Below, piece by piece: positions 4,634 to 17,438 of a DNA stretch of 44,678 nucleotides; position 1 is the stretch's first letter; every line of letters starts with the position of its first letter. Below the pieces are notes generated by a model, which searched no databases, was not told the origin of the DNA, and worked only from the letters and a program-made list of their open reading frames with translations. The position numbers and the translations under genes are program-made. Origin of the DNA: an uncultured bacterium (lineage in GTDB: Bacteria; Muiribacteriota; Ozemobacteria; Ozemobacterales; Ozemobacteraceae); contig CAYYUI010000040.1 of assembly GCA_964474705.1 (NCBI GenBank), positions 1 through 44,678 on the forward strand, written 5' to 3'.

Positions 4634-6483
4634 AACACGAAAAACGCAAAGACCTCAGACACACCCGTGCCTACTACATAAAATGGATCTGGAACGAATA
4701 CCGCCCGCACTGGCGGATGGTAATGTTTCTGCTCTTTCTGACCTTTCTGTCGACGATCATCGCGGTGCTGTTTCCGATGGTGCTCAAGCATATCATCGAC
4801 AGTCTCGTCACGGGTCTTAAAAGCTTTCAGGCCGGAACCACCAGCGTCGAAGCGGCCCAGGGAGAACGTAACCGCATGCTGCTTATGCTGCTGGCCATGG
4901 GTCTGGGTCCGGTGTTTTCTGGCATTTACCCCTATTTCAGGGCCCGCATGAACGTGACTTTCGAAATGTACTTTCGCGAAAGATTCTTTGCCGAAATACT
5001 CTCAAAGGGGCACCGGTTCTTTCTTAAATTCAGAACCGGCGATCTGGTTACCCGTCTGACCGAAGACATCAGAACCAACCCGCCCGGGCTGTCGTGGCTG
5101 TGCTGTTCAGGCATCTTCAGGGCCGTCAACTCGGCGAGCATCATCTTTTTCTGCGTGATTTCGATGGCTCTGCTGCACTGGAAACTGGCGCTCGTCGCCT
5201 GTATTCCGCTGCCGATCATGCTGTTCATCTTTATCAAGCTCGAAACAAGTTTCGGCGAAACCTTCAAAGAAGCCCAGGAGGGTATGTCCGAGGGTAATGA
5301 TTTTCTCGAAGCCGCTTATTCGGGTGTCAAGATCATCGCCTCGTTCAATGCCCGTCAGCCGCAGCAGCGTCTGTTCGACAAGCTGCTCGAAAAGCGTATC
5401 GGTCAGGAAATCAGAGTCGACAGCCTCTGGGGCCTCTTCATGGTCTTCTTCGAATTTCTCAACTACGTCGGTGAGATCATGGTGCTGATTTTCGGTGGAA
5501 TAATGGTCATCAGAGGCTCGTTGACGCTCGGAACCTACTATGCCTTCTTCAGCTATCTCGGCATGATCATCTACCCGCTGATGGACATTCCGATGATGCT
5601 GGTAACCCTTACGCAGGCCTGCGTGTCGATCGACCGTCTCGAAGACATGCAGCAGGCCGACCGGGCCTGGCAGGAACTCGATGTCGACGGCAGCACTGAA
5701 ATAGCAACCATCGAAAGCCTGAGCTTTGAAAACGTCAGTTTCAGGCACAGCACTCTCGAAAAACTTGAAAAGCCGGAAGCCACGGCCACTGGTGGCGAGG
5801 AGAAAGTCGAACAGGAACCATTTGCATTCGACAATCTCAACTTCACCATCCGCAAAGGTGAAAAAGTTGCGATTGTCGGTCAGATCGGTTCGGGCAAGAC
5901 TACATTGCTGAACCTGATTTCCGGGGTTATGAAGCCAGACGGAGGCACTGTGACTATCAACGGTCTGCCGTTGCCGGAAATCAGAAAGCAGTCGTTCCGT
6001 GACAAGATCGGCTACATTCAGCAGGAACCGGTTATCTTTTCCGAGTCGATCCGCACCAACATCGACTTCTGGCGCAATCAGAGTGACGAGCTGATTCAGT
6101 CATGCGCACGCCTGGCCCAGTTTGACCGCGAAGTTCTGTCTTTTCCCGGCGGTTACACCGAGCCGGTCGGCCAGCGCGGTGTCACGCTCTCAGGCGGTCA
6201 GCGTCAGCGCCTGTCGATTGCGCGCGCCCTGGTCGGTCGCCCGCAGCTGCTGCTCATGGACGACATCACCGCCAGTCTCGATGCGGCAAACGAGAAGAAA
6301 CTCTGGGCCGACCTCGACCGGGAATGCGGTTCCATAACCTGCCTGATCGTCACGCACCGCATGGCGACCGCAATGATGGCCGACCGCATCATCGTCCTGA
6401 AAGATGGCCGCATCGAAGCGACCGGCACCCATGATGAGCTGATGCAGAGCTGCGAGACCTACCGCCATCTGTCCCACGCATAA
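4630..6483 (+). CDS. ABC transporter permease/ATP-binding protein (second half-transporter, heterodimer partner)
   Basis: ATGA start/stop overlap with the upstream gene; TM domain; Walker A GQIGSGKT; signature LSGGQRQ; Walker B LLMDD. Confidence 0.9.
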   Translation: MKHEKRKDLRHTRAYYIKWIWNEYRPHWRMVMFLLFLTFLSTIIAVLFPMVLKHIIDSLVTGLKSFQAGTTSVEAAQGERNRMLLMLLAMGLGPVFSGIYPYFRARMNVTFEMYFRERFFAEILSKGHRFFLKFRTGDLVTRLTEDIRTNPPGLSWLCCSGIFRAVNSASIIFFCVISMALLHWKLALVACIPLPIMLFIFIKLETSFGETFKEAQEGMSEGNDFLEAAYSGVKIIASFNARQPQQRLFDKLLEKRIGQEIRVDSLWGLFMVFFEFLNYVGEIMVLIFGGIMVIRGSLTLGTYYAFFSYLGMIIYPLMDIPMMLVTLTQACVSIDRLEDMQQADRAWQELDVDGSTEIATIESLSFENVSFRHSTLEKLEKPEATATGGEEKVEQEPFAFDNLNFTIRKGEKVAIVGQIGSGKTTLLNLISGVMKPDGGTVTINGLPLPEIRKQSFRDKIGYIQQEPVIFSESIRTNIDFWRNQSDELIQSCARLAQFDREVLSFPGGYTEPVGQRGVTLSGGQRQRLSIARALVGRPQLLLMDDITASLDAANEKKLWADLDRECGSITCLIVTHRMATAMMADRIIVLKDGRIEATGTHDELMQSCETYRHLSHA

Positions 6484-6507
6484 ACACGGGAACAGGAGAA
6501 ATATTTC

Positions 6508-6570
6508 TCACGGATTAACACGTATTAACACGGATAAACATGGATAAACTTCGATAAATATCGACGAACA
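6508..6570. repeat. six tandem degenerate 10 bp repeats (consensus AYGGATAAAC)
   Basis: ACGGATTAAC ACGTATTAAC ACGGATAAAC ATGGATAAAC TTCGATAAAT ATCGACGAAC, directly after the exporter stop codon. Confidence 0.4.
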
Positions 6571-6584
6571 TCATCAGACAAAGG

Positions 6585-6626
6585 TTGCCGCCAGGTTGAA
6601 TACCATATCTGGCGGCAAATTTTATT
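6585..6626 (+). terminator. intrinsic terminator after the ABC exporter operon
   Basis: Stem TTGCCGCCAG / CTGGCGGCAA with a 14 nt loop, followed by ATTTTATT. Confidence 0.55.
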
Positions 6627-6706
6627 AAGAAATCAGTATTATCAGAGCCAGTTTCTTTGTCGCAGCCCAGCTTGCTGGCAACGCCGTGGCTGATACGGCA
6701 GAATTG

Positions 6707-8626
6707 TCAGGTGCCGGCAAGGATTTTTCGGAAGAAGACCGCCTCTTTTTCGAGTGAATCGACGAGATTGCCTTTCTGTCTGAAACCGTGGCCTTCGTCG
6801 GGGTATTCGTAGTATTCGTGCATGATATGCTTGCTGGCGAGAATTTCTGCCATTTCCCGGGAATTTTCAGGTGGAACGACTTTGTCTTCGGAACCCTGAA
6901 AGATGATCATCGGGCTTTTCAGATTTGCGAGATGATTGATCGGTGATCTGTCTTCGAAGACATGGCGATGTGTGATCATCTGGCCCCCGAGCAGTCCTTC
7001 GAGATAACGCGATTCAAATTTGTGGGTGAGATTCTGCAGAGTTATCAGATTGCCGATGCCGAAATAGCTGGCTCCGGCGGCAAACATCTCCGGAAACATG
7101 GTCAGAAGTCGCTGTACTGTGTAACCGCCGGCGCTGCCGCCTGAAACAACAACCTGATCGCCGATCATTCGTTTCTGGCGCAGGTAGTTCAGCCCGTCTC
7201 TGACATCGCTGATTTCAAGAACTCCCCATTCCCCAAGCAGAGCATCGCGATAGGCTCTGCCAAAACCGGTTGAACCGCGATAGTTTACATCAAAAATTGC
7301 ATAGCCCTGGCTGGTCCAGAAGACGTGCTCACGACTGAAGCCCGGTCGTGCCATGCTGGTGGGCCCGCCATGCACGAGAACCCTTGCCGGCGGGAGTTCC
7401 CCATCGGGAGCCTGGTAGAAACTGTTTTGCGGCGGGTAAAAATAGCCGTGACATAACCTGCCATCACTGACCGGAAAGCTGATTTTTTCGGGTTTGCTGA
7501 TGCTGTCGGCGGGAATATCACATTCTGATGAATTGCGCAGAATCTCGATGCTGCCGTCCTGCTTTATCAGAGCCAGTTGTGAGGGTTTATCAGAAGATGT
7601 TCCAGTCAGGGCAAGATTTTCACCGCAGGCGACTGGCTTAGATACTGATAAAAATGGGGTCGGCAGTTCGGTTAAACTGCCATTTCCGGCGTTAACCCAG
7701 GCCAGGCCGGGTATGCCTTCTCTGAATGTCAGGGCGAGAATTCGATCTTTCATGTGCAGAATCCAGGCAATCTCGTGCATGGATTCTGTAGTGCGGCTTA
7801 TGGAGCCATCATGCCAGGTATATATGTTGAAAAAATTGTCGACCGAATCTTCACTTGCTCCCTTTCGATCGATGCTGAAGCGTATTTTGCCCTCTCTGCT
7901 GAAAGAAAAGTCGTTTACAGCTTCGCTTTCGGAACCGGCAACCCTGCAGATGGCATTCTGGATGATCTGGCCGTCAGCAAAGGGAGCGCAGCAGAGAATC
8001 GTTGAATCCCAGGGCATATGTGGGTGATTCCATTGCAGCCATGCCAGACTTCTGCCATCTGGCGAAAAAATCGGTTGTTTGTAGAAATCTGCTTCTCTTA
8101 CCAGAATTACGGGCTCCTGAATGTCATTTTGGCGCAGGTCAAGAAGGCAGATGGCATTTTCCGGTTCTTTGTCCCCGCCCTCGAGCTCGCAGGCGGCAAC
8201 CAGCCAGCGGCCATCAGGAGACACGGTCGGCTGCATAAATTTTATCATTCGGCCGTCTGCTGCCTTTTCGGGAGTAATGGCTGTCGGTGTTTCGTTTCTG
8301 GCAGAATCAAATGAATAAAGACGCTGGTCTGCAAAATTGGCGAAGATGACCCGGGTTCCGGTTGCAACGTATGGCATGCCGCCGTATTCCATGACTCGGC
8401 TTCTGGCTGAAAAGGGTGCGGGCAGCAGTTCTTTGATTGCGCCGTCAGGATTGCGCATCATGATGACGCAACGCCCTTTTTCTTCGGGCCGAAGTTCAAC
8501 CCAGAACAGTCTGCCGGTTTCGTCACCGTGCAGAAACGAAAAGTTTACGGTTGCCTGAAAGACTTCTTCTGCGCTTATGACTGGTTTCCAGGTCAGATAT
8601 GAAGCTGTGACCGGTGAGTGCTGCAT
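6707..8626 (-). CDS. S9 family serine peptidase (prolyl oligopeptidase / acylaminoacyl-peptidase type) with N-terminal beta-propeller
   Basis: GGSAGG nucleophile-elbow motif; C-terminal alpha/beta-hydrolase region; AGGAGAA RBS. Confidence 0.85.
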   Translation of the reverse strand: MQHSPVTASYLTWKPVISAEEVFQATVNFSFLHGDETGRLFWVELRPEEKGRCVIMMRNPDGAIKELLPAPFSARSRVMEYGGMPYVATGTRVIFANFADQRLYSFDSARNETPTAITPEKAADGRMIKFMQPTVSPDGRWLVAACELEGGDKEPENAICLLDLRQNDIQEPVILVREADFYKQPIFSPDGRSLAWLQWNHPHMPWDSTILCCAPFADGQIIQNAICRVAGSESEAVNDFSFSREGKIRFSIDRKGASEDSVDNFFNIYTWHDGSISRTTESMHEIAWILHMKDRILALTFREGIPGLAWVNAGNGSLTELPTPFLSVSKPVACGENLALTGTSSDKPSQLALIKQDGSIEILRNSSECDIPADSISKPEKISFPVSDGRLCHGYFYPPQNSFYQAPDGELPPARVLVHGGPTSMARPGFSREHVFWTSQGYAIFDVNYRGSTGFGRAYRDALLGEWGVLEISDVRDGLNYLRQKRMIGDQVVVSGGSAGGYTVQRLLTMFPEMFAAGASYFGIGNLITLQNLTHKFESRYLEGLLGGQMITHRHVFEDRSPINHLANLKSPMIIFQGSEDKVVPPENSREMAEILASKHIMHEYYEYPDEGHGFRQKGNLVDSLEKEAVFFRKILAGT

Positions 8627-8772
8627 TTTGTTCTCCTATTTGCTTTATCGGCCAGCGAATGAGTTTCTTCGTGGGGGTTATGATAACAGCGCTGGTCTCT
8701 GCTTTTTTCCAGGCCTTTTACGCGGGTGACAAAATCGGTATCTGAGCCTCAGAATGCGATACCGTCTGGCTG

Positions 8773-10395
8773 TCAGAACAGAAAATCAGTGGTTAGAAAG
8801 CTTGAGAGGTCGTCTTTAAGAATTCTGGTGATCAACTGTTTGTTGTCATCGCTGTCTTTGGCGGCGACCAGGGTTCTTATCGAGAAAACCCGCAGAGCAT
8901 CAGAGACTGAAAGGGTGCCTTCTGCTGAATCCTTGCGGCCGGTGAACGGGAAGGTGTCGGGGCCGCGCTGGCACTGGCTGTTGATGTTAACACGACAGAC
9001 CTGATTAACCAGCGGGTCGATCAGTGAGGCCATCTGTTTCGCATCTTTCCCGAAAAGGCTTACCTGCTGACCATAGTCTGACTCGACGACGTAATTTATT
9101 GCATCTTCAATCTTATCGTAAGCCACAACTGGCACAATCGGCCCGAACTGTTCTTCGCGATACAGCTTCATTTTATCGTTAACCGGGTAGACAACCGCGG
9201 GAAAGAAGAGAGAGCCCGAAAAAGCCCCGCCCGAAGGATTAAGGATTCTGGCACCGTTTGTTTGCGCGTCTTTGATGAGATCAGTTAGGCGCTCTGATTT
9301 GCCGGGTTCTGCAAGCGGAGTGATCTGAGCGCCTTTTTCCCAGGGAAGATTGACCTGAAGCTTTTCTACTTCGGCGCAAAACTTAGCCAGGAAAGTTTCG
9401 GCTATAGAAGAATGGACAAAGATAATTTTCAGCGCGGTGCAACGCTGGCCATTGAATGACAGGCTTCCGAGAATGCATTCTTTGACCGCCAGATCGATAT
9501 CGGCATCGGGAAGAATAATACATGGGTTTTTAGCGTCCAGACCGAGTACGCAGCGCAGGCGGTGCGGTTTAGGGTGTGACCTGCGGATGATGTCTGAAAC
9601 ACGGCTGGTGCCGATAAAAGCCAGAACATCAACTTTTCCGGAGGTCATCATCGGCGTGATCACGGTCTGTCCGTCCCCATATACCGTATTGATGACCCCT
9701 TTCGGAAATGAATCACGAAAAGCTTCAAGCAGCGGCTGAAAAAGCAGGACGCCAAGTTTAGGTGGCTTGAAAACGACGGTGTTGCCCATGATCAGAGCTG
9801 GAATCAGCGTCGTAAAAGTTTCGTTGAGCGGGTAATTGAACGGGCCCATGCAAAGAACGACGCCGAGCGGTGCCCGTCTGATCTGACCGATAATTTTCTG
9901 CTGAATGGTAAAACGCGATGAAGTGCGGTCGAGTTCCTTCAGGGCTTCGATTGTATCGCGGATATAATCGATGGTGCGGTCGAATTCCTTCTGGGCATCG
10001 GCGAGGTTTTTGCAGATTTCCCACATCAGCAGGTTAACGACGCGGTCACGGCAGGCAAGCATGCGCTCTACAAAACTCTGAACGTGGCTGATGCGTTCTC
10101 CAACCGGCATGGTAGGCCATTTTCCCCGGCCGTTGTCGTAAGCCGCCGATGCCGCATTCAAAGCTTCTATGGCAGCATGATCTGACATGCTTGGCACGCA
10201 GCCAAGTTTTACCTGTTCTGGAGAGTTGTCTTTCCTGATTCTGACCGGGGAACTGATTTCCTGCATCTGGCCCTGCCATTGCCGTATTTCTCCATCGATC
10301 AGGTAATCGCGCTGCTCGATCCATGGGGCTTTGAATTCAGCTGGAATATTGGTTTCCTGTGGCGCAAGGGCTGCAAGCATTTCGCCTGTTATCAT
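8773..10395 (-). CDS. NAD(P)-dependent aldehyde dehydrogenase, GapN-like (non-phosphorylating GAPDH family)
   Basis: ALDH motifs FTGS-like, catalytic Cys in QRCTAL, and a C-terminus similar to GapN (QRGPDTFPFTG); GGAGG RBS before the ATG at 10395. Confidence 0.85.
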   Translation of the reverse strand: MITGEMLAALAPQETNIPAEFKAPWIEQRDYLIDGEIRQWQGQMQEISSPVRIRKDNSPEQVKLGCVPSMSDHAAIEALNAASAAYDNGRGKWPTMPVGERISHVQSFVERMLACRDRVVNLLMWEICKNLADAQKEFDRTIDYIRDTIEALKELDRTSSRFTIQQKIIGQIRRAPLGVVLCMGPFNYPLNETFTTLIPALIMGNTVVFKPPKLGVLLFQPLLEAFRDSFPKGVINTVYGDGQTVITPMMTSGKVDVLAFIGTSRVSDIIRRSHPKPHRLRCVLGLDAKNPCIILPDADIDLAVKECILGSLSFNGQRCTALKIIFVHSSIAETFLAKFCAEVEKLQVNLPWEKGAQITPLAEPGKSERLTDLIKDAQTNGARILNPSGGAFSGSLFFPAVVYPVNDKMKLYREEQFGPIVPVVAYDKIEDAINYVVESDYGQQVSLFGKDAKQMASLIDPLVNQVCRVNINSQCQRGPDTFPFTGRKDSAEGTLSVSDALRVFSIRTLVAAKDSDDNKQLITRILKDDLSSFLTTDFLF

Positions 10396-10633
10396 CGGGT
10401 TCCTCCGTTTGGTCAGCAACAGCTGCAGAAATTTAAGGTGTCTGAATTTACTCAGTAATTTTACATGATCGGCATGCTGGTAGCATTATTTTTTATGCAG
10501 CTCAGGGGCAAGAGTCTGGCCTTTTCTGAATATTTAAGCGCCCAAAGAGAGTTTATTGTACTTGAGAATAAAACCGGCCCGTTCAGATTTCTGACCGTGC
10601 CGGACGTTGATTCTGGCGTTTGCGGTGAATGCT

Positions 10634-10739
10634 CAGGGCCCCCAGTAAGTAACGCTGTAATTGTTCAGGATTTCTTTGAGTTTTCCGCTGGCGCGCCATT
10701 CTTCGATGCTCTTATCGTAACGGCGGCAAATATTGATCA
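10634..10739 (-). CDS. possible 35-aa small protein (MINICRRYDKSIEEWRASGKL...)
   Basis: Strong GAGAGGAG RBS 5 nt before the ATG; no homology recognised; downstream of the ankyrin gene. Confidence 0.2.
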
Positions 10740-10853
10740 TCGTATACTCCTCTCTAATTTCTTTTTGAAAAGACTTCAGCGTGTCTGGTAAAGATTTCGA
10801 TTCGTTAAATCTGCTCAGAAATCAAGAGATTCGACTTTTGCTTCAGCTCTTAT

Positions 10854-11933
10854 TCAAGACTTAACCGATTTGCAGAGAGGGCATTTGTTAGCGTCCGGCA
10901 TGCAGGCGGGGCAGATGTGTTCATGGTGAATGCAGCGGGGAAATGTGTTAACCGCTGTAGTCAGGTCGAATGTTTTTCTGCAAAGCGGGCATTGAAAAGT
11001 CTTTTTGCTTTTGCCGATGTTTTCACGGCGGTGCGCCCAGCGCCAGATGGTGTGCAAACCAGCTTCTGCCTTGTCGCGATTAAGTCCTGAGGCGGTCATG
11101 CAGGGTTTGCAGATCTTGTGCTCCTGGTCTGATGATCTGCCGTAGATCCCGCCGGCACAGGAAGAGCAGGTTGGGCGGCCACACCAGGAGCAGTGCCAGT
11201 CTATATCGCCAAAATCACTCATTCCGAGCCGATACGATCCGGAAAAGAAGGTTTGCCCGCAGATATGGCACGGCCCTGGCATACGTTGCCCATCAGCTCC
11301 GTGTTTCAGCAGAAGGTCGGTCAGTGTCTGGTTGTTTTTCTGGTGCGCGGCAAGAAGCGGGGTATCACCGTCTTTGCCCATGGCATTAACATTGGCGCCG
11401 CCGTTGAGCAGAACTTCAGCCAACTCCAGATTGTTCCAGTGAACCACCAGCGTGAGTGGCGTGGTGAAGTTCTCATATGACTGATATTCTGTAGAAAGTT
11501 TATTCTGGATGAGAAAATTAACCAAAGCAGGATTCTTACCCCATATAGCTCTGCCGATGAGGTAACCCTCATGCTCCTCGAGGGTTTCTGTCAGTTTTGC
11601 TCCGTGTTTCATCAGGAGTTTCAGTCCCTCCAGATTTCCTTTTTCACAGCAGATGTTCACGGCAGTTCGCCCCTGTCTGGTTCTTGCATCAGGCTTCACG
11701 CCATTTTTGAGCAGCAGACGGATAAGATTGTTGTTCGCGCCCATCGCTGCGTAGATAAGCGCATTGCCACCATCTACCGTAACCCGGAAGATATCTGCAC
11801 CGTCGCGATACAGCTCCATCGCGGTTTCTTCTTTTCCCCGCTGCAGGGCTTCGAAAAATTCAGAAATGCCGGCAGCATCGACCGGCTCGGCTCCAAGCAG
11901 ACGCTTAATTCCAGATTTGATCAGTCGTATCAT
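10854..11933 (-). CDS. ankyrin-repeat protein with C-terminal Cys-rich zinc fingers including a C3HC4 RING finger
   Basis: At least five ANK repeats (GxTPLhhAA / LLKHGA motifs); C-terminus CPLC-x14-CIHH-x3-CPAC-x6-CPLC fits RING spacing; a preceding Cys/His B-box-like module. Confidence 0.8.
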   Translation of the reverse strand: MIRLIKSGIKRLLGAEPVDAAGISEFFEALQRGKEETAMELYRDGADIFRVTVDGGNALIYAAMGANNNLIRLLLKNGVKPDARTRQGRTAVNICCEKGNLEGLKLLMKHGAKLTETLEEHEGYLIGRAIWGKNPALVNFLIQNKLSTEYQSYENFTTPLTLVVHWNNLELAEVLLNGGANVNAMGKDGDTPLLAAHQKNNQTLTDLLLKHGADGQRMPGPCHICGQTFFSGSYRLGMSDFGDIDWHCSWCGRPTCSSCAGGIYGRSSDQEHKICKPCMTASGLNRDKAEAGLHTIWRWAHRRENIGKSKKTFQCPLCRKTFDLTTAVNTFPRCIHHEHICPACMPDANKCPLCKSVKS

Positions 11934-12132
11934 GGCCTGTTTTCCGGTTGGTCATATTAATCTCAACGCAAAAAGACTAGCACCGGGTCAGAAAAAAGAC
12001 AATATCGCGACAAGACCATGCTGCGGTGAAAATTTGCAGCGTCAACGACTTTAGATTATATTGGTGTTAGCTTTTTTAAAGATTGGTTTGTATTCAAGCC
12101 TGACTGGCAGGTCTTGCAACCGGAGGAAGTTC

Positions 12133-12366
12133 ATGAAAACAATAGATCTGAATCTTTCGGATTATACCCTGGCGCAAAAGCTGCAACTGTTGGAAACCCT
12201 GTGGGATGACATTGCCAGAGAGGGCAGTTTCGATTCGCCAGAATGGCACGGCGCTGTTTTAAAAGACCGTCAGAAGGCCTATGATGCAAACAAACTGACA
12301 TCCTCAGATTGGCAACAGGCCAAGAAGCGTATCAAAAAAATCTCGCATGCGAGTAGAAATCCTTAA
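12133..12366 (+). CDS. putative addiction-module antitoxin component (RelB/Phd-like family)
   Basis: MKTIDLNLSDYTLAQKLQLLETLWDDIA is typical of the TIGR02574-type small antitoxin; GGAGGAAG RBS. Confidence 0.55.
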   Translation: MKTIDLNLSDYTLAQKLQLLETLWDDIAREGSFDSPEWHGAVLKDRQKAYDANKLTSSDWQQAKKRIKKISHASRNP

Positions 12367-12499
12367 TACCGCAGAAAGCGACCTTGAGGAAGGCTTGAAA
12401 GCGTTGATACCAGTTTACGGATTAACAACAAGCTCATGGAAAGCGCGTAAGCGTGAATTTAAACGCCTCTTGAAAAAGCTCGCTTCTGCCTTCCCCTGA
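12347..12499 (+). pseudogene. truncated RelE/ParE-like toxin remnant (50 aa)
   Basis: Overlaps the antitoxin 3' end in the usual TA arrangement; only the N-terminal part (MRVEILNTAESDLEEGLKAL) resembles ParE/RelE; about half the normal length. Confidence 0.3.
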
Positions 12500-12513
12500 C
12501 TTAAAGAAATTAT

Positions 12514-15375
12514 TCACGCAGTGAGTCGCTGGTATAAATCAAACAAGAAGGCGACGCGGTCGGCTTCGGTTTTGAATGTGGTTTTGCCGTAGGCGGCATC
12601 CACTGCTTTGTCGAGATTCTGATGTGCCTTTACCAGTTCAGGGGGCATTGATCTAGGATCGTAGAGGTCAGCAAGAGAACTGTCTGGGTATTTGGTGCGG
12701 GCATCTAATACTTGCTGGGCCGCCAATTCAACTGCTTTCTGTTGTTTTTTGTCTGGGTTTAAAGGCCACGGGAATGTATTGTAGGTCAGCTTGGCCGAAT
12801 ATTGATAGTCGCTTTTCAATCTACCAGAAGTTGTGCGCATCCATGCCATGTGCATTGTGCTGGTAATTATGCCAAAATCATAAAGACTTGCACCGGGAAT
12901 GGTTTGCAACTTGTCGCCTGCAATGTGGGTATGTGGCAGATAGCCGATTGGGATGTAATTTCGGTTTTCTGATGAAACCCTTGGCAATGCGAGATAGTAG
13001 CCTGATTGAGGTTGTCTGATTTCAGCAAACAATGCTGGTTTATTAGAATCTCTTTGCGTGGCTTCTTTAGTGCTCGCACTTCTCATGGCTTTGACAGCTT
13101 CAACACGCTTCATCACATGATGCATTTCTCTTAACTTGTTTGGCGAGCAACCTACGAGCCAAAGGCAAAATCGTGGAATGTTGTTGATGAATTCATCACC
13201 CATTGAAAAAGGTCTTACAAGCTCTTCAGCGGCGGGTTCAATTTTTAATAACTCATTTTTTTCGTCTTCTGATAGCAAAAGATTGCCGCCATCGGTAGGC
13301 TTGTTGCCGTTTACCATTGCTGGAACTTTGCATAATGCCTGCGACCGTGCCAGAACAACAGCGTTGGGTGCATCGAGCAGGTATGGGTTAATGTTCTTTG
13401 CGATTGTGCTGTGTGGTTCGCCTTTAATGTCGTCATAGACAAATAGGGTCTTTTCTGGGGTTTCGGCCAGACCGAAGCCGATAATAACAACATGCACGGC
13501 CGCCTTTCCGCGTGCTTCGCTGCTCCAGCTGAATGTTCGGTGGGCAAAATAAATTTTCAGTCCTGCTTTTATAAGTGGCGGCCATAATATAGAGACCTGT
13601 TCACCCTGGGTGATGCTGTTTGTCGAGACGAATGCGACGCGTGTGTTTTTGTTTTTTACCAGGTAATCTGTGGCCAGATAATACCAGGCAGCGACAAAAT
13701 CAAGGCTTCTGTATAACTTCACTGGTTCGAGGCTGGCAGCAGCGTTGAATACCTTGTGTAAGTCGGTGTCCTGCTGGTCGGAACGGTAATTTTTGCCGAT
13801 GAACGGCGGATTTCCCATGATGTAGTCAAAACTTACCCGTTCTGATTCGGCTGGGGCCTGGCCTTTGTGCACTTTAAACGACTTTGTTTGAACATTGATA
13901 GTATTGTAAGTTTGCTTTGGATCATTTACCAGATAGATATTTGTATGTTGAGCTGTTGCATCAATGGTGCTGATGGGAATGAGAAGTTCTTGCCAGTCGA
14001 TCTGCAGGGCGTTGGCGCATACGATGGTGCCGCCGCCGCGCAATGGAATACGTGCAAAATAAAGGCCGAACTCTTCAGAAACCTGCATGTTCATCTGGTG
14101 GTCAACCAGCCACAGTGCAACCTGGGCAATCTGAGCCGGGAATTCTTCAATTTCGATGCCGTAGAACTGGTCAACATCAAGCTTTATCAGTGTCTGCACG
14201 TCCAGAATCTGTTGCTGTTTGTCATACATGGCGCGAAGAATTTCTAGTTCCAGCAGGCGCAATTCACGGTAGGCAATGACCAGAAAGTTGCCACAACCGC
14301 AAGCCGGGTCGAGAAATTTCAACGAGCGCAGCTTTTGATGAAACTCAGCCAGCTTGTTTTTATTACCCTTAAATTTGGTGAATTCTTCCCAGAGAACATC
14401 GAGAAACAGCGGCTTGATCAGCTTCAAAATGTTCCTTTCACTGGTATAGTGGGCACCAAGATTTCGTCTGGCGGTTTTATCCATGATTGACTGAAACAAC
14501 GAACCGAAGATAGCCGGTGAAATACGGCTCCAGTCGAGAGCGCAACAGTCGAGCAGAGTCTGGCGCATTTTGCTGTCAAAACTGGCGTTCGGCAGGATTT
14601 CCTCAAACAGCTTACCATTAACGTATGGAAAGGCGGCCAGCTGTTCATCGAGATTTCTGAGACGCCTGCTTTCTGGCGTGTTCAAAACCTGAAAAAGTGC
14701 GGCAATATGGTAAGCCAGATCTGAGCCGTCTTCATTCGTGCGTTCTTCAACATAGTTCTGAAAGGTCTGGCGCTCAAAAATGCCGGTGTCTTCGGCAAAT
14801 AGACAGAAAAGAAGGCGCACCAGATACAGCTCAAGCTGATGACCGTCGTAGCCGATTTCCTTGAGCTGGTCATGCAATCTCCCCATGTTTTCGGCGGCCC
14901 TGATATTAACCGGGTCTTCTTCGCGGATCTTGTGTTTCTGGTATCCGGCCACAAAGCCGAAAAGCCTGATGTTTTTGTGCAGGTCTCTGAGGTCGAAGTC
15001 GTGCTGCTCGTTTTCTTCCAGGTCATAGAGGCGGAACCTGGCAAAGTCAGAAACCAGAATGTATTTGGGCAGCTCGCGCTCCAGTATGCCGGGGAAATAA
15101 TCGAGAGCTTGAGTGTAGGCTCGATCAAGGTTTTTGCCGCGCGATTTGTGCTCGACCAGCAGAATTCCTTTCCAGAACAGGTCAATGAACCCTTGCTTTT
15201 CTCCGAGTTTCTTTACTGGTTCTTCAAATGACGCAACCCGCTTGCGGGTAATACCAAAGATATTGAAGAAGCCATCCCAGAATGATTTGGCTTCGGCATC
15301 TTCTGATGTTTCGGTTTCCCACTCTTTTGAAAAGGCTATGGCGCGGCTTTTTATCTCGTTCCAGCTCAAAGGCAT
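12514..15375 (-). CDS. MmeI-family Type IIL restriction-modification enzyme (fused endonuclease, N6-adenine methyltransferase and target-recognition domain)
   Basis: N-terminus MPLSWNEIKSRAIAFSKEWE; DLFW..EHKSRG nuclease motif; SAM motif I FLDPACGCGNFL; motif IV GNPPF; C-terminus LKAHQNLDKAVD..AFLFDLYQRLT, all characteristic of MmeI-like enzymes. Confidence 0.85.
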   Translation of the reverse strand: MPLSWNEIKSRAIAFSKEWETETSEDAEAKSFWDGFFNIFGITRKRVASFEEPVKKLGEKQGFIDLFWKGILLVEHKSRGKNLDRAYTQALDYFPGILERELPKYILVSDFARFRLYDLEENEQHDFDLRDLHKNIRLFGFVAGYQKHKIREEDPVNIRAAENMGRLHDQLKEIGYDGHQLELYLVRLLFCLFAEDTGIFERQTFQNYVEERTNEDGSDLAYHIAALFQVLNTPESRRLRNLDEQLAAFPYVNGKLFEEILPNASFDSKMRQTLLDCCALDWSRISPAIFGSLFQSIMDKTARRNLGAHYTSERNILKLIKPLFLDVLWEEFTKFKGNKNKLAEFHQKLRSLKFLDPACGCGNFLVIAYRELRLLELEILRAMYDKQQQILDVQTLIKLDVDQFYGIEIEEFPAQIAQVALWLVDHQMNMQVSEEFGLYFARIPLRGGGTIVCANALQIDWQELLIPISTIDATAQHTNIYLVNDPKQTYNTINVQTKSFKVHKGQAPAESERVSFDYIMGNPPFIGKNYRSDQQDTDLHKVFNAAASLEPVKLYRSLDFVAAWYYLATDYLVKNKNTRVAFVSTNSITQGEQVSILWPPLIKAGLKIYFAHRTFSWSSEARGKAAVHVVIIGFGLAETPEKTLFVYDDIKGEPHSTIAKNINPYLLDAPNAVVLARSQALCKVPAMVNGNKPTDGGNLLLSEDEKNELLKIEPAAEELVRPFSMGDEFINNIPRFCLWLVGCSPNKLREMHHVMKRVEAVKAMRSASTKEATQRDSNKPALFAEIRQPQSGYYLALPRVSSENRNYIPIGYLPHTHIAGDKLQTIPGASLYDFGIITSTMHMAWMRTTSGRLKSDYQYSAKLTYNTFPWPLNPDKKQQKAVELAAQQVLDARTKYPDSSLADLYDPRSMPPELVKAHQNLDKAVDAAYGKTTFKTEADRVAFLFDLYQRLTA

Positions 15376-15745
15376 GATTGTTACTCTCTGTTCAGGTTGA
15401 TTTTTGTTATGACTCAGGCTTTCGTCCGGCAAAGTCCATTAAATCACAATCAGATCTATCATGCAATTTTTGCTCAGATCGAACAACTCTACGAGTGAAG
15501 CATGGTCGATTCGCCTGATTTGGAAGCTTATAGTGGCCGCCTGGTAAAGGTTAAAAAGCGGCAGCAAAGTCTTCCTGATATAAATTCTGCGAACCATTGT
15601 TTGCTCAAATTAGGAACGCATTGCATACCATTTTGAAGACGGCTTGCTGTTTTAATTCACTGAATCTCGGCCTTTCCAGTTTGCTTCTTTCAAAGATTGT
15701 CGTCGGGTGGTTGAATTGTAATATTGCAGGTGATATCATAAATAT

Positions 15746-15991
15746 ATGGGAACATTTGAAAAACTCCTGGAAAAAATGCGCAGTAATCCTCGTGGAGATT
15801 GGACTATGGAAAATCTTCTGACGATTGCCAGGCGGATGAACATTGAGGTTCGCAACAGTGACGGCAGTCACCATGTTTTTTCTTTTCCAGGGCTGGATGA
15901 GGATGTAACGGTACCGTATAAGCGGCCGATCAAACCGGTTTATATCAAAAAGTTTCTTGCGCTGGTTGATGCGGTTAAGGAGGTTGTATGA
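15746..15991 (+). CDS. hicA: HicA-family mRNA interferase toxin
   Basis: GSHHVF ... VTVPYKRPIKPVYIKKFL motif of HicA/YcfA; ATGA overlap with the downstream gene. Confidence 0.7.
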   Translation: MGTFEKLLEKMRSNPRGDWTMENLLTIARRMNIEVRNSDGSHHVFSFPGLDEDVTVPYKRPIKPVYIKKFLALVDAVKEVV

Positions 15992-16380
15992 AGAAGGTTG
16001 CAAAAGTTAAGCCGCCCTTTGCTTTTGATGAATACACAAGGGTTCTGAGCCGTATTGCGGAAGATGACGGCGGCGGGTTTCTGATTACTTTTCCGGATCT
16101 GCCGGGCTGCATGTCTGATGGAACCACTGAGGAAGAGGCCCTCGAGAATGGAAGAGATGCTTTTGTTTCGTGGGTTTCAGCGCGGATGGATCAGGGAAAG
16201 AATATTCCGGAACCAAAAGCGAAGCCGATGGACTATGTTGCGGCAGATGTTTCCGGACGATTTCTGGCGCGGATGCCGAAGTATATTCATGCTCGTCTGG
16301 TTAAGAGGGCAGAACGTGAGGGTGTGAGCGTGAATGCCCTGGTTCTGTCTTTTATCGCTTCCGGGCTTGGGCAGAGCTGA
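15988..16380 (+). CDS. hicB: HicB-family antitoxin (RNase-H-like fold N-domain plus RHH DNA-binding C-domain)
   Basis: LITFPDLPGCMSDGTTEEEALENGRDA is HicB/UPF0150-like; the C-terminus is a ribbon-helix-helix. Confidence 0.75.
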   Translation: MKKVAKVKPPFAFDEYTRVLSRIAEDDGGGFLITFPDLPGCMSDGTTEEEALENGRDAFVSWVSARMDQGKNIPEPKAKPMDYVAADVSGRFLARMPKYIHARLVKRAEREGVSVNALVLSFIASGLGQS

Positions 16381-16434
16381 AACTCTCATTAACCAATAAT
16401 TTCCGGCACGCTACGTAGCGCGGCGCAAAAGATT

Positions 16435-16719
16435 TCAGGCAACCTTGCTTAGAGTCAGGTTGAATCCTGATCTCATGGCCAGAATAATAAGCATTTCCAG
16501 ACTGAATTTTTCCCATTTTCCACGAACCAGATCAGAAATTCTCGACTGGCTAACCTGCAGAATTTCGGCAGCTTCAGCCTGAGTAAGACCCTGATCACTG
16601 ATCCACTTTCTTACCTCTGCCATCAAATCAGCCCGCATTCTAAGAATTGCAGCATCTTCACTCGAATAGCCGAGGTCGAGAAAAACATTTCCAGATGATT
16701 CATGAATTTCGTTTTTCAT
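16435..16719 (-). CDS. higA: HigA-like XRE-family HTH antitoxin
   Basis: HTH LTQAEAAEILQVSQSRISDLVRG; its ATG overlaps the TAA stop of the upstream toxin reading frame by 1 nt. Confidence 0.75.
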   Translation of the reverse strand: MKNEIHESSGNVFLDLGYSSEDAAILRMRADLMAEVRKWISDQGLTQAEAAEILQVSQSRISDLVRGKWEKFSLEMLIILAMRSGFNLTLSKVA

Positions 16720-17041
16720 TATTTTACCCCAATGAGAGCCAGTCTTTTGCGAGCAATTTCGATATCCTGCAGAGAGGTTTTCTGTGTTTTTTTCTGAAAA
16801 GCGTGCAAAACATAAACAGCATCCAAAACTTTGGCTACGTAGATAACCCGCCATTCCCCAAGGATATGAATCCGGATTTCATTTACTCCAGAACCGATTG
16901 TCTTCAGGGTTTCCAGTCGCCTGGCTCAAACCCATTTTGAATAGCTCGAAGCTCGAAACCGGCAGCACGCCGCGCTTCCTCCGGGAAATCGCGCAATTCA
17001 TTCAGACTCGGCCCAACAAATCTTAATGGCTTGGTAGTCAC
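16719..17041 (-). pseudogene. higB: HigB/Gp49-like (RelE/ParE superfamily, COG4679-type) toxin, disrupted by a frameshift
   Basis: Two adjacent frames give KPLRFVGPSLNELRDFPEEARRAAGFELRAIQNGFEPGDWKP and LKTIGSGVNEIRIHILGEWRVIYVA..VYVLHAFQKKTQKT, which join if one C is added to the CCC run (plus-strand GGG at 16907-16909); putative GTG start at 17041. Confidence 0.6.
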
Positions 17042-17046
17042 AATAC

Positions 17047-17076
17047 AATTATATATGTTTTTATATAATTCTCAAG
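17047..17076 (-). promoter_or_regulatory. promoter (TTGAGA-16-TATAAT) with a perfect 9 bp inverted-repeat operator AATTATATA-N6-TATATAATT for the higBA locus
   Basis: Palindrome arms at 17047-17055 and 17062-17070 overlap the -10 element; typical TA autoregulation site. Confidence 0.4.
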
Positions 17077-17227
17077 CAAAAATTTGCTTCATCCGAATCC
17101 TGCATACTTTTATAACGAAAGGACTTGAAAAGCGTGGACATGAGTTTCAAGGCAGATAGATGCCACTCAAATCTGCCTGGAGGAAACCATGTTCATACTG
17201 TGCCGGCGTGGCAGACTGGTAGCAGGT

Positions 17228-17425
17228 TCAGTAATGCGGCGGTTTTTCGTCGTGGGGGCGGTCTTCGTCGATTGGGGAAGGGGTGGTTTTGGGCTGCAGG
17301 CGGGTGATTTCTTTGTAGCAGCGGTCGAGCTGTTTCTGCTGGTCGACGATGACTTCGTTGAGTTCTTCGACGAATTTTTCGAGGTAGACGAGGCGTTTTT
17401 CGATTTCGATGAAACGGTTTTCCAT
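17228..17425 (-). CDS. slyX: SlyX family protein
   Basis: Coiled-coil 65-aa protein ending in PPHY, as in SlyX. Confidence 0.8.
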   Translation of the reverse strand: MENRFIEIEKRLVYLEKFVEELNEVIVDQQKQLDRCYKEITRLQPKTTPSPIDEDRPHDEKPPHY

Positions 17426-17438
17426 GGTTTTTCTGCTT

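Follow-up and report, generated by a model that had tools for sequence, protein, structure and literature searches.

The window analysed here is a whole metagenome-assembled genome (MAG) contig of 44,678 nt, CAYYUI010000040.1, from a Riflebacteria/Ozemobacteraceae relative. An islet of about 5 kb within it (12061–17100) holds four elements: a PF09720 antitoxin with the relic of a parE toxin gene, an MmeI-family restriction-modification (RM) gene, a hicAB pair and a higBA pair. The islet is an ordinary variable defence hotspot, a mosaic of well-known module types and not a new kind of system. We consider it likely that this defence and addiction hotspot was built by stepwise accretion of independent cassettes, with the MmeI, hicAB and higBA modules as its cargo. 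An earlier sequence-only reading of this DNA had placed four elements within 5 kb, and the open reading frame (ORF) map and the family scans locate all of them. It had also described toxin-antitoxin (TA) loci in different states of decay, which is what the genes display: parE is deleted, higB is frameshifted and hicAB is intact.

A variable site beside a fixed block

The CorA, SlyX, vault-like protein and ATP-binding cassette (ABC) transporters encoded on the contig are 81–95% identical to their counterparts in Candidatus Riflebacteria MAGs. The G+C content of the islet is 0.445–0.49, against about 0.50–0.56 in the flanks. In three related species (L001, L002 and L081) corA-slyX directly abuts the two ABC-transporter genes whose counterparts extend to 6483 in the window, indicating that the region of about 6.5–17.2 kb is lineage-specific at this site. 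The islet is not core genome, being absent at this site in the same three species and having its nearest MmeI homologues at unrelated loci.

The arrangement is reproduced in independent assemblies. L185 is 99.86% identical across 10790–16688 without gaps, L186 is 100% identical across 6893–12377, L187 is 99.85% identical across 11900–13843, and L182, in which higB is intact, is 99.4% identical across 15266–17245. Thus the junctions cannot be put down to artefacts of a single assembly, and nor can the deletion in parE or the changed end of the antitoxin.

To the left of the islet lies a gene (10854–11933, minus strand) for a 359-residue ankyrin-repeat protein, which matches Pfam Ank_2, Ank_4 and Ank and has a Cys-rich, zinc-finger-like C-terminus. 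It occupies the same position beside the antitoxin in L169–L176 (L169 6654–7733), with 81% nucleotide and 83% amino acid identity. The block of ankyrin gene and antitoxin/parE (10870–12396) is conserved at 81–94% nucleotide identity in other Ozemobacteraceae, where it adjoins an ornithine transcarbamylase (OTCase) gene and AddAB-like helicase-nuclease genes. By sequence comparison the ankyrin gene is assigned to a conserved anchor block and not to mobile cargo, and the variable cargo is taken to begin, on its left side, only past the parE relic rather than ahead of the antitoxin. The islet had been described as lying between an ankyrin-RING gene and corA/slyX. The ankyrin neighbour is confirmed, but the RING label is unsupported by Pfam: no RING match was found in the protein, and its Cys-rich tail comes closest to a FYVE domain, below the threshold (E 0.0084). 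The C-terminal 140 residues of the protein are rich in CxxC pairs, and it matches the PADLOC models PDC-M72A and 'Ankyrin'.

In the relatives the slot downstream of parE is occupied variously by a TmtA/MkoA-like helicase, by a type I RM system together with a GmrSD-like gene, or by a PDC-S02/DUF1016 nuclease. A more distant relative (L179–L181) has Wadjet genes directly upstream of the antitoxin/parE pair and no recognised defence gene downstream of it. The occupant of the slot in L169 (8540–13315, minus strand), with equivalents in L173–L175 and L178, is a protein of 1591–1622 residues that has a SACS/HATPase-like N-terminus and an Upf1-like helicase and matches the PADLOC models TmtA (Tiamat) and MkoA (Mokosh). 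Its gene is followed by ORFs of 162 and 94 residues and then by a SNF2 helicase.

The MmeI-family gene has boundaries of its own. Homologues of 82–83% identity stand in unrelated neighbourhoods, with the gene alone in common. The blastn matches of L161 and L162 cover 12502–15473, and those of L165 cover 12539–13824 and 13993–15522, delimiting a single-gene cassette at 12502–15522 that comprises the gene, about 100–150 nt upstream and about 12 nt downstream.

In the history that we propose, the chromosomal hotspot would arise by stepwise accretion of self-contained cassettes. The ankyrin gene and the PF09720-antitoxin/ParE pair would form the fixed anchor, and the slot just downstream of parE would take differing cargo, which in the window genome would be the MmeI-family enzyme, the intact hicAB module and the higBA module. 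Toxins would be lost while antitoxins persist, parE by internal deletions beside an antitoxin whose C-terminus has slipped, and the one-base deletion in higB would be polymorphic in the population.

The MmeI-family enzyme

The gene at 12514–15375 on the minus strand encodes a type IIL (IIG) RM enzyme of 953 residues. Five MmeI domains are present, MmeI_N, MmeI_hel, MmeI_Mtase, MmeI_TRD and MmeI_C, each scoring far above its Pfam cut-off. The protein aligns over its full length with MmeI (PDB 5HR4, E=0) in two HMMER stretches, residues 1–465 and 518–952 against MmeI residues 1–470 and 477–903, and scores 1206 bits against the PADLOC Type IIG model REase_MTase_IIG. The PD-ExK residues D65, E75 and K77, contained in IDLFWKGILLVEHK, align with D70, E80 and K82 of MmeI, and alignment with these three is the criterion by which Morgan et al. 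defined the family (PMC2731913). The motifs of a gamma-class N6-adenine methyltransferase follow, motif I as DPACGCGNF at residues 356–364 and motif IV as NPPF at 522–525. The target recognition domain (TRD) spans residues 669–871, and the ORF is full-length and free of stops. These features bear out the sequence-only reading, which had taken the gene for a single-polypeptide MmeI-type enzyme. The same reading had named a methyltransferase-only protein as the alternative, but the nuclease residues are conserved: across 15 homologues neither D-E-K nor motif I nor NPPF varies. No separate methyltransferase or specificity gene lies alongside, the neighbours being the parE relic and hicA, and MmeI-type homologues at other loci are likewise solitary genes.

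The loop directly before NPPF comprises 52 residues (466–517; window 13824–13983). Among the homologues it is common only to P0002, P0007 and P0011, and its distribution does not track overall identity. An AlphaFold2 (AF2) model of the full enzyme, built from a 15-sequence alignment, was uninterpretable, with a mean predicted local distance difference test (pLDDT) score of 54.5 and values below 50 in this loop.

The MmeI family is known for recognition domains that are exchanged or evolve separately. The present enzyme is 69–83% identical to all 14 homologues, and in the closest of these (75–83% identity) the nuclease, helical and N-terminal methyltransferase parts are 88–96% identical, while the TRD is 49–89% identical. 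The TRD has thus been exchanged or is evolving separately, and the swappable C-terminal recognition domain that had been proposed is directly visible in the comparison. Its complete set of motifs suggests that the 953-residue enzyme is probably active, with a predictable site. By homology, it would methylate the penultimate adenine on one strand of an asymmetric 6-bp site and would cut unmodified DNA about 20/18 nt downstream of the site.

The predicted recognition site

Published contact residues allow the specificity of the enzyme to be predicted. For this, the positions that contact DNA in the MmeI-DNA structure (PMC4833311), together with Morgan and Luyten's covariation rules (PMC2731914), were mapped onto the 953-residue protein. 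As controls, the alignment used for the mapping gives back the residues of MmeI itself exactly, and for CstMI, from plasmid pTP10, it gives A/Q, F/M, K/D, L/R and K/D, which read as AAGGAG, its known site.

For the window enzyme, K770 with E785 indicates C at position 1, and N689 with K692 indicates at position 2 a C more likely than an A, as Lys here pairs most often with C:G. R799 with D821 indicates G at position 3, and K822 with Q858, a non-Arg residue, indicates C at position 4. V800 with L853 corresponds to the methylated adenine at position 5, and K854-x-D856 to G at position 6. The predicted recognition sequence is 5′-C(C/A)GCAG-3′. Two natural homologues, P0017 and P0019, have a contact-residue signature identical to that of the window enzyme. 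Others appear as combinatorial variants of the same code, P0003, P0004 and P0012 reading ..GCAC and P0010 having an NmeAIII-like signature. NNGCAG was recognised by no enzyme in the table of 2009 (Morgan et al. 2009, PMC2731913), and literature searches for CCGCAG-type motifs returned nothing relevant.

C(C/A)GCAG is therefore offered as a testable site prediction for a natural MmeI-family enzyme. With its combination of R/D, K/Q and K/D the enzyme provides a natural counterpart to an inactive MmeI design with six substitutions, and this may be of interest for engineering type IIL specificity.

The toxin-antitoxin modules

The antitoxin at 12133–12366 (plus strand) has 77 residues and matches PF09720 (Unstab_antitox, E 1e-13, 51.5 bits) and TIGR02574. 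It had been called RelB-like; no RelB-type match was obtained, PF09720 and TIGR02574 were the only families found, and the partner in the relatives is ParE (PF05016), so that this label is withdrawn. In the relatives the antitoxin has 74 residues and ends in NLACE*. One A has been lost from a run of A near the end of the gene (A8 in the closest relative, A7 here), replacing the last five residues, NLACE*, with ISHASRNP*. The 77-residue allele is identical in three other assemblies.

The parE relic (12347–12445, plus strand) consists of the first 16–17 codons and a short remnant of the 3′ end. A 50-residue ORF at 12347–12499, overlapping the antitoxin gene, has no Pfam or NCBIfam match, and its first 16–17 codons match the intact 98-residue ParE (PF05016) beside the same antitoxin in relatives such as L169. 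DNA homology to the intact parE genes ends at 12396, after codon 17. The 3′ remnant, GGATTAACAACAAGCTCATGG, reading ..INNKLM.., lies at about 12410–12445 and matches 20 of 25 bases with an exact run of 14. This second relic shows that the toxin gene was destroyed by internal deletions and not by simple truncation; the truncated toxin stub of the sequence-only reading is thus right as to a broken toxin gene, but not as to how it was broken. Truncation of parE by insertion of the MmeI gene was also considered and is rejected, because the 3′ remnant persists between the deletion and the MmeI cassette. Elsewhere, parE is frameshifted in L166 and shortened to 79 residues in L176.

The hicAB pair is whole, as had been read, and may be active. 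Gene hicA (15746–15991, plus strand) encodes a putative 81-residue toxin of a divergent subfamily with a GSHH motif, and hicB (15988–16380, plus strand) encodes a 130-residue antitoxin that matches PF15919 (47.7 bits) and PF05534 (29.2 bits). The two genes overlap by 4 nt, ATGA, at 15988–15991. HicA scores 19 bits against PF07927 (HicA_toxin), under the Pfam cut-off of 27 bits, and 32 of the 46 members of its subfamily match PF07927. Its AF2 model has a pLDDT of 93.5, and the top three PDB matches of the model in Foldseek are HicA structures, 6G26_E/F (probability 0.97), 4C26 and 1WHZ, at weak E-values of 0.06–0.35. The subfamily scans and the predicted structure support the assignment of this putative HicA. 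An imperfect palindrome, GCACGCTACGTAGCGCGGCGC, lies at 16395–16434, within the 54 nt that separate the convergent genes hicB and higA, and may act as a terminator for both genes or mark a junction of cassettes.

The higBA pair is on the minus strand. Gene higA (16435–16719) encodes a 94-residue XRE/HTH_37 antitoxin (PF13744, E 2.4e-17). Upstream of it, higB (16719–17041) is a pseudogene with one base missing between 16906 and 16907 and a stop after codon 45, and its original stop overlaps the higA start by 1 nt (TAATG). With one base restored, higB matches PF05973 (Gp49) over its full length at 86 bits, in agreement with the frameshifted toxin that had been noted, and intact 107-residue HigB homologues are up to 99% identical. 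L182 has the extra base, the A in CCC-A-TGAAG, reading WKPMKT, and the window has CCCTGAAG in its place. Since L182 holds the missing A, outside a homopolymer, the higB frameshift is either of recent origin and polymorphic or, with lower probability, an error of the consensus. A promoter and terminator scan gave background levels, with TTGAGA-16-TATAAT upstream of higB as the sole strong match, and an Rfam scan of 10500–18600 gave no match.

The higBA cassette spans 16389–17085 and is 93.8% identical over 698 nt to a stretch of an Erysipelotrichia-labelled contig (L183/L184), where it stands in a different, TA-rich context. Identity of this degree across phyla means either that the module was recently transferred horizontally or that the contig is mis-binned. 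The counterpart is L183 7957–8653 (BAAFTJ010000026.1), and the source genomes are assigned to different phyla.

Other genes around the islet

Between the ABC-transporter genes and the ankyrin gene lie an S9 peptidase gene (6707–8626), an aldehyde dehydrogenase gene (8773–10419) and a 108-residue ORF. These genes (6483–10850) are missing at this position in the three related species and have normal G+C, which points to rearrangement rather than foreign DNA. On the other side, the gene at 18600–21095 (plus strand) encodes an 831-residue protein in which a major-vault-protein shoulder domain (PF11978, E 1.5e-29) is accompanied by a Vault_3 repeat. In two related Riflebacteria this protein is 92–95% identical, compared with 85% for the neighbouring CorA.

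Alternative explanations

Several observations weigh against a hotspot of accreted cassettes that carries an active enzyme of the predicted specificity. Nothing accounts for the entry of the cassettes: there is no tRNA gene in the contig, island-border searches gave no convincing flanking repeats, and no integrase, transposase or other recombinase occurs among the ORFs at 6.3–17.3 kb. Only a single assembly of this MAG spans the frameshift in higB. Published rules do not decide between C and A at position 2 of the site. MmeI engineered to R/D, K/S and K/D by six substitutions is inactive, showing that some combinations fail (PMC2731914). CNGCAG motifs are not depleted in the contig, the observed/expected ratio of 0.87–0.94 falling within the bulk of 6-mers, a comparison of low power at 44.7 kb. 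The whole 6.5–17.2 kb segment might instead be a single mobile element that integrated here, for instance a prophage remnant, an integrative and conjugative element or a transposon. It would fit that three related species lack the segment between slyX and the ABC-transporter genes, and that its right half is lower in G+C. Yet an element of this kind is hardly credible for a segment in which integrase, transposase, tRNA gene and flanking direct or inverted repeats were all sought and not found, whose left half consists of housekeeping-type genes (S9 peptidase, aldehyde dehydrogenase) of normal G+C, and whose modules differ from one another both in homology boundaries and in relatives.

The decayed genes could also owe their state to consensus or assembly errors, in higB and perhaps in the A7 run of the antitoxin, the genome then having an intact higBA and a normal antitoxin. 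The intact higB on a 99.4%-identical contig from another run, the coverage of the mutant state at the frameshift site by the window contig alone, and the position of the antitoxin change in a homopolymer favour such errors. The higB deletion, however, lies outside a homopolymer, the A7 allele of the antitoxin recurs in three further assemblies, and the large orthologous genes across the contig align full-length to relatives with no frame breaks, so errors are unlikely. For the enzyme, the question is whether the MmeI homologue has been domesticated or disabled, being methyltransferase-only or inactive and kept for epigenetic regulation rather than restriction. Its homologues are named only 'DNA methyltransferase' by their sources, the analogous six-substitution MmeI is inactive, and the loop that is 45 residues longer than in MmeI adjoins catalytic motif IV. 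This loop is nevertheless present in the full-length homologues P0002, P0007 and P0011, and two natural homologues share the contact-residue signature. The catalytic motifs are intact and invariant in a full-length ORF, and the gene travels as a cassette among defence contexts. A disabled enzyme is therefore very unlikely, and the stepwise accretion of cassettes with an enzyme that is probably active is preferred.

A broader reading joins these observations, and as a whole it is possible but doubtful. The ankyrin and PF09720-antitoxin/parE block would be the constant marker of a hotspot at which Ozemobacteraceae exchange defence systems without an integrase. MmeI, the Tiamat/Mokosh-like helicase, type I RM and the DUF1016 nuclease would replace one another there by homologous recombination in the flanking DNA, and in one relative Wadjet genes lie on the opposite side of the antitoxin/parE pair. 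The resident parE would have been repeatedly inactivated, by deletion in the window, frameshift in L166 and truncation in L176, and its antitoxin retained, possibly as an anti-addiction gene. The window enzyme would then be a natural active scaffold for NNGCAG, with a combination that fails when engineered into MmeI.

The islet provides a documented case, from the barely studied candidate phylum Riflebacteria, of a defence hotspot and of RM and TA genes exchanged as cassettes, including a strain-level polymorphism that inactivates a toxin. The understanding of RM or TA systems is unchanged, and the practical value is modest.

Comparison with known systems

MmeI of Methylophilus methylotrophus, which recognises TCCRAC(20/18), has the same five-domain order as the window enzyme, with the D-E-K residues, DPACGCGNF and NPPF, and both are single-gene systems with no M or S subunit. 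The contacts at position 5 are kept, with L853 in place and V800 standing for T752 of MmeI. In contrast, every base-specifying pair has changed except K645, the changes from MmeI being A723K, F737A, Y738E, Y642N, E751R, N773D, A774K, R810Q, E806K and R808D. The minor-groove residues differ as well (S488N and K489Y), and the loop before NPPF has 52 residues where MmeI has 7. The predicted site is different too, C(C/A)GCAG in the window enzyme and TCCRAC in MmeI. The predicted C(C/A)GCAG matches in part the sites of PspPRI (CCYCAG), PlaDI (CATCAG), NmeAIII (GCCGAG) and CstMI (AAGGAG) (PMC2731913). The window enzyme and the characterised members of the family share the residue code in which K-x-D specifies G at position 6, Lys at the position of residue 774 specifies C at position 4, and Arg/Asp specifies G at position 3.

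The hicAB pair resembles known HicAB systems, such as that of Burkholderia pseudomallei (PDB 6G26/4C26), in its toxin-first order and overlapping genes. For the putative window HicA, which has the Ser-His motif, the AF2 model predicts the alpha-beta-beta-beta-alpha fold of known HicA proteins, and the window HicB has an HicB_lk domain and a C-terminal HicB/ribbon-helix-helix region. The window HicA differs in being divergent, with an extra N-terminal helix and a sequence E-value of only 0.057 against a solved HicA. The higBA pair follows HigBA systems with a Gp49/PF05973 toxin and an HTH_37 antitoxin (HigB PDB 6AF3) in its toxin-first order and its 1-nt stop/start overlap, and it gives full-length family matches once the base is restored; the toxin gene in the window, however, is broken after codon 45. 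Compared with the pair of ParE and a TIGR02574/PF09720 'addiction module component', the antitoxin is of the same family and the overlapping toxin gene is present in the relatives, whereas in the window the toxin is represented by two short relics only and the tail of the antitoxin is altered.

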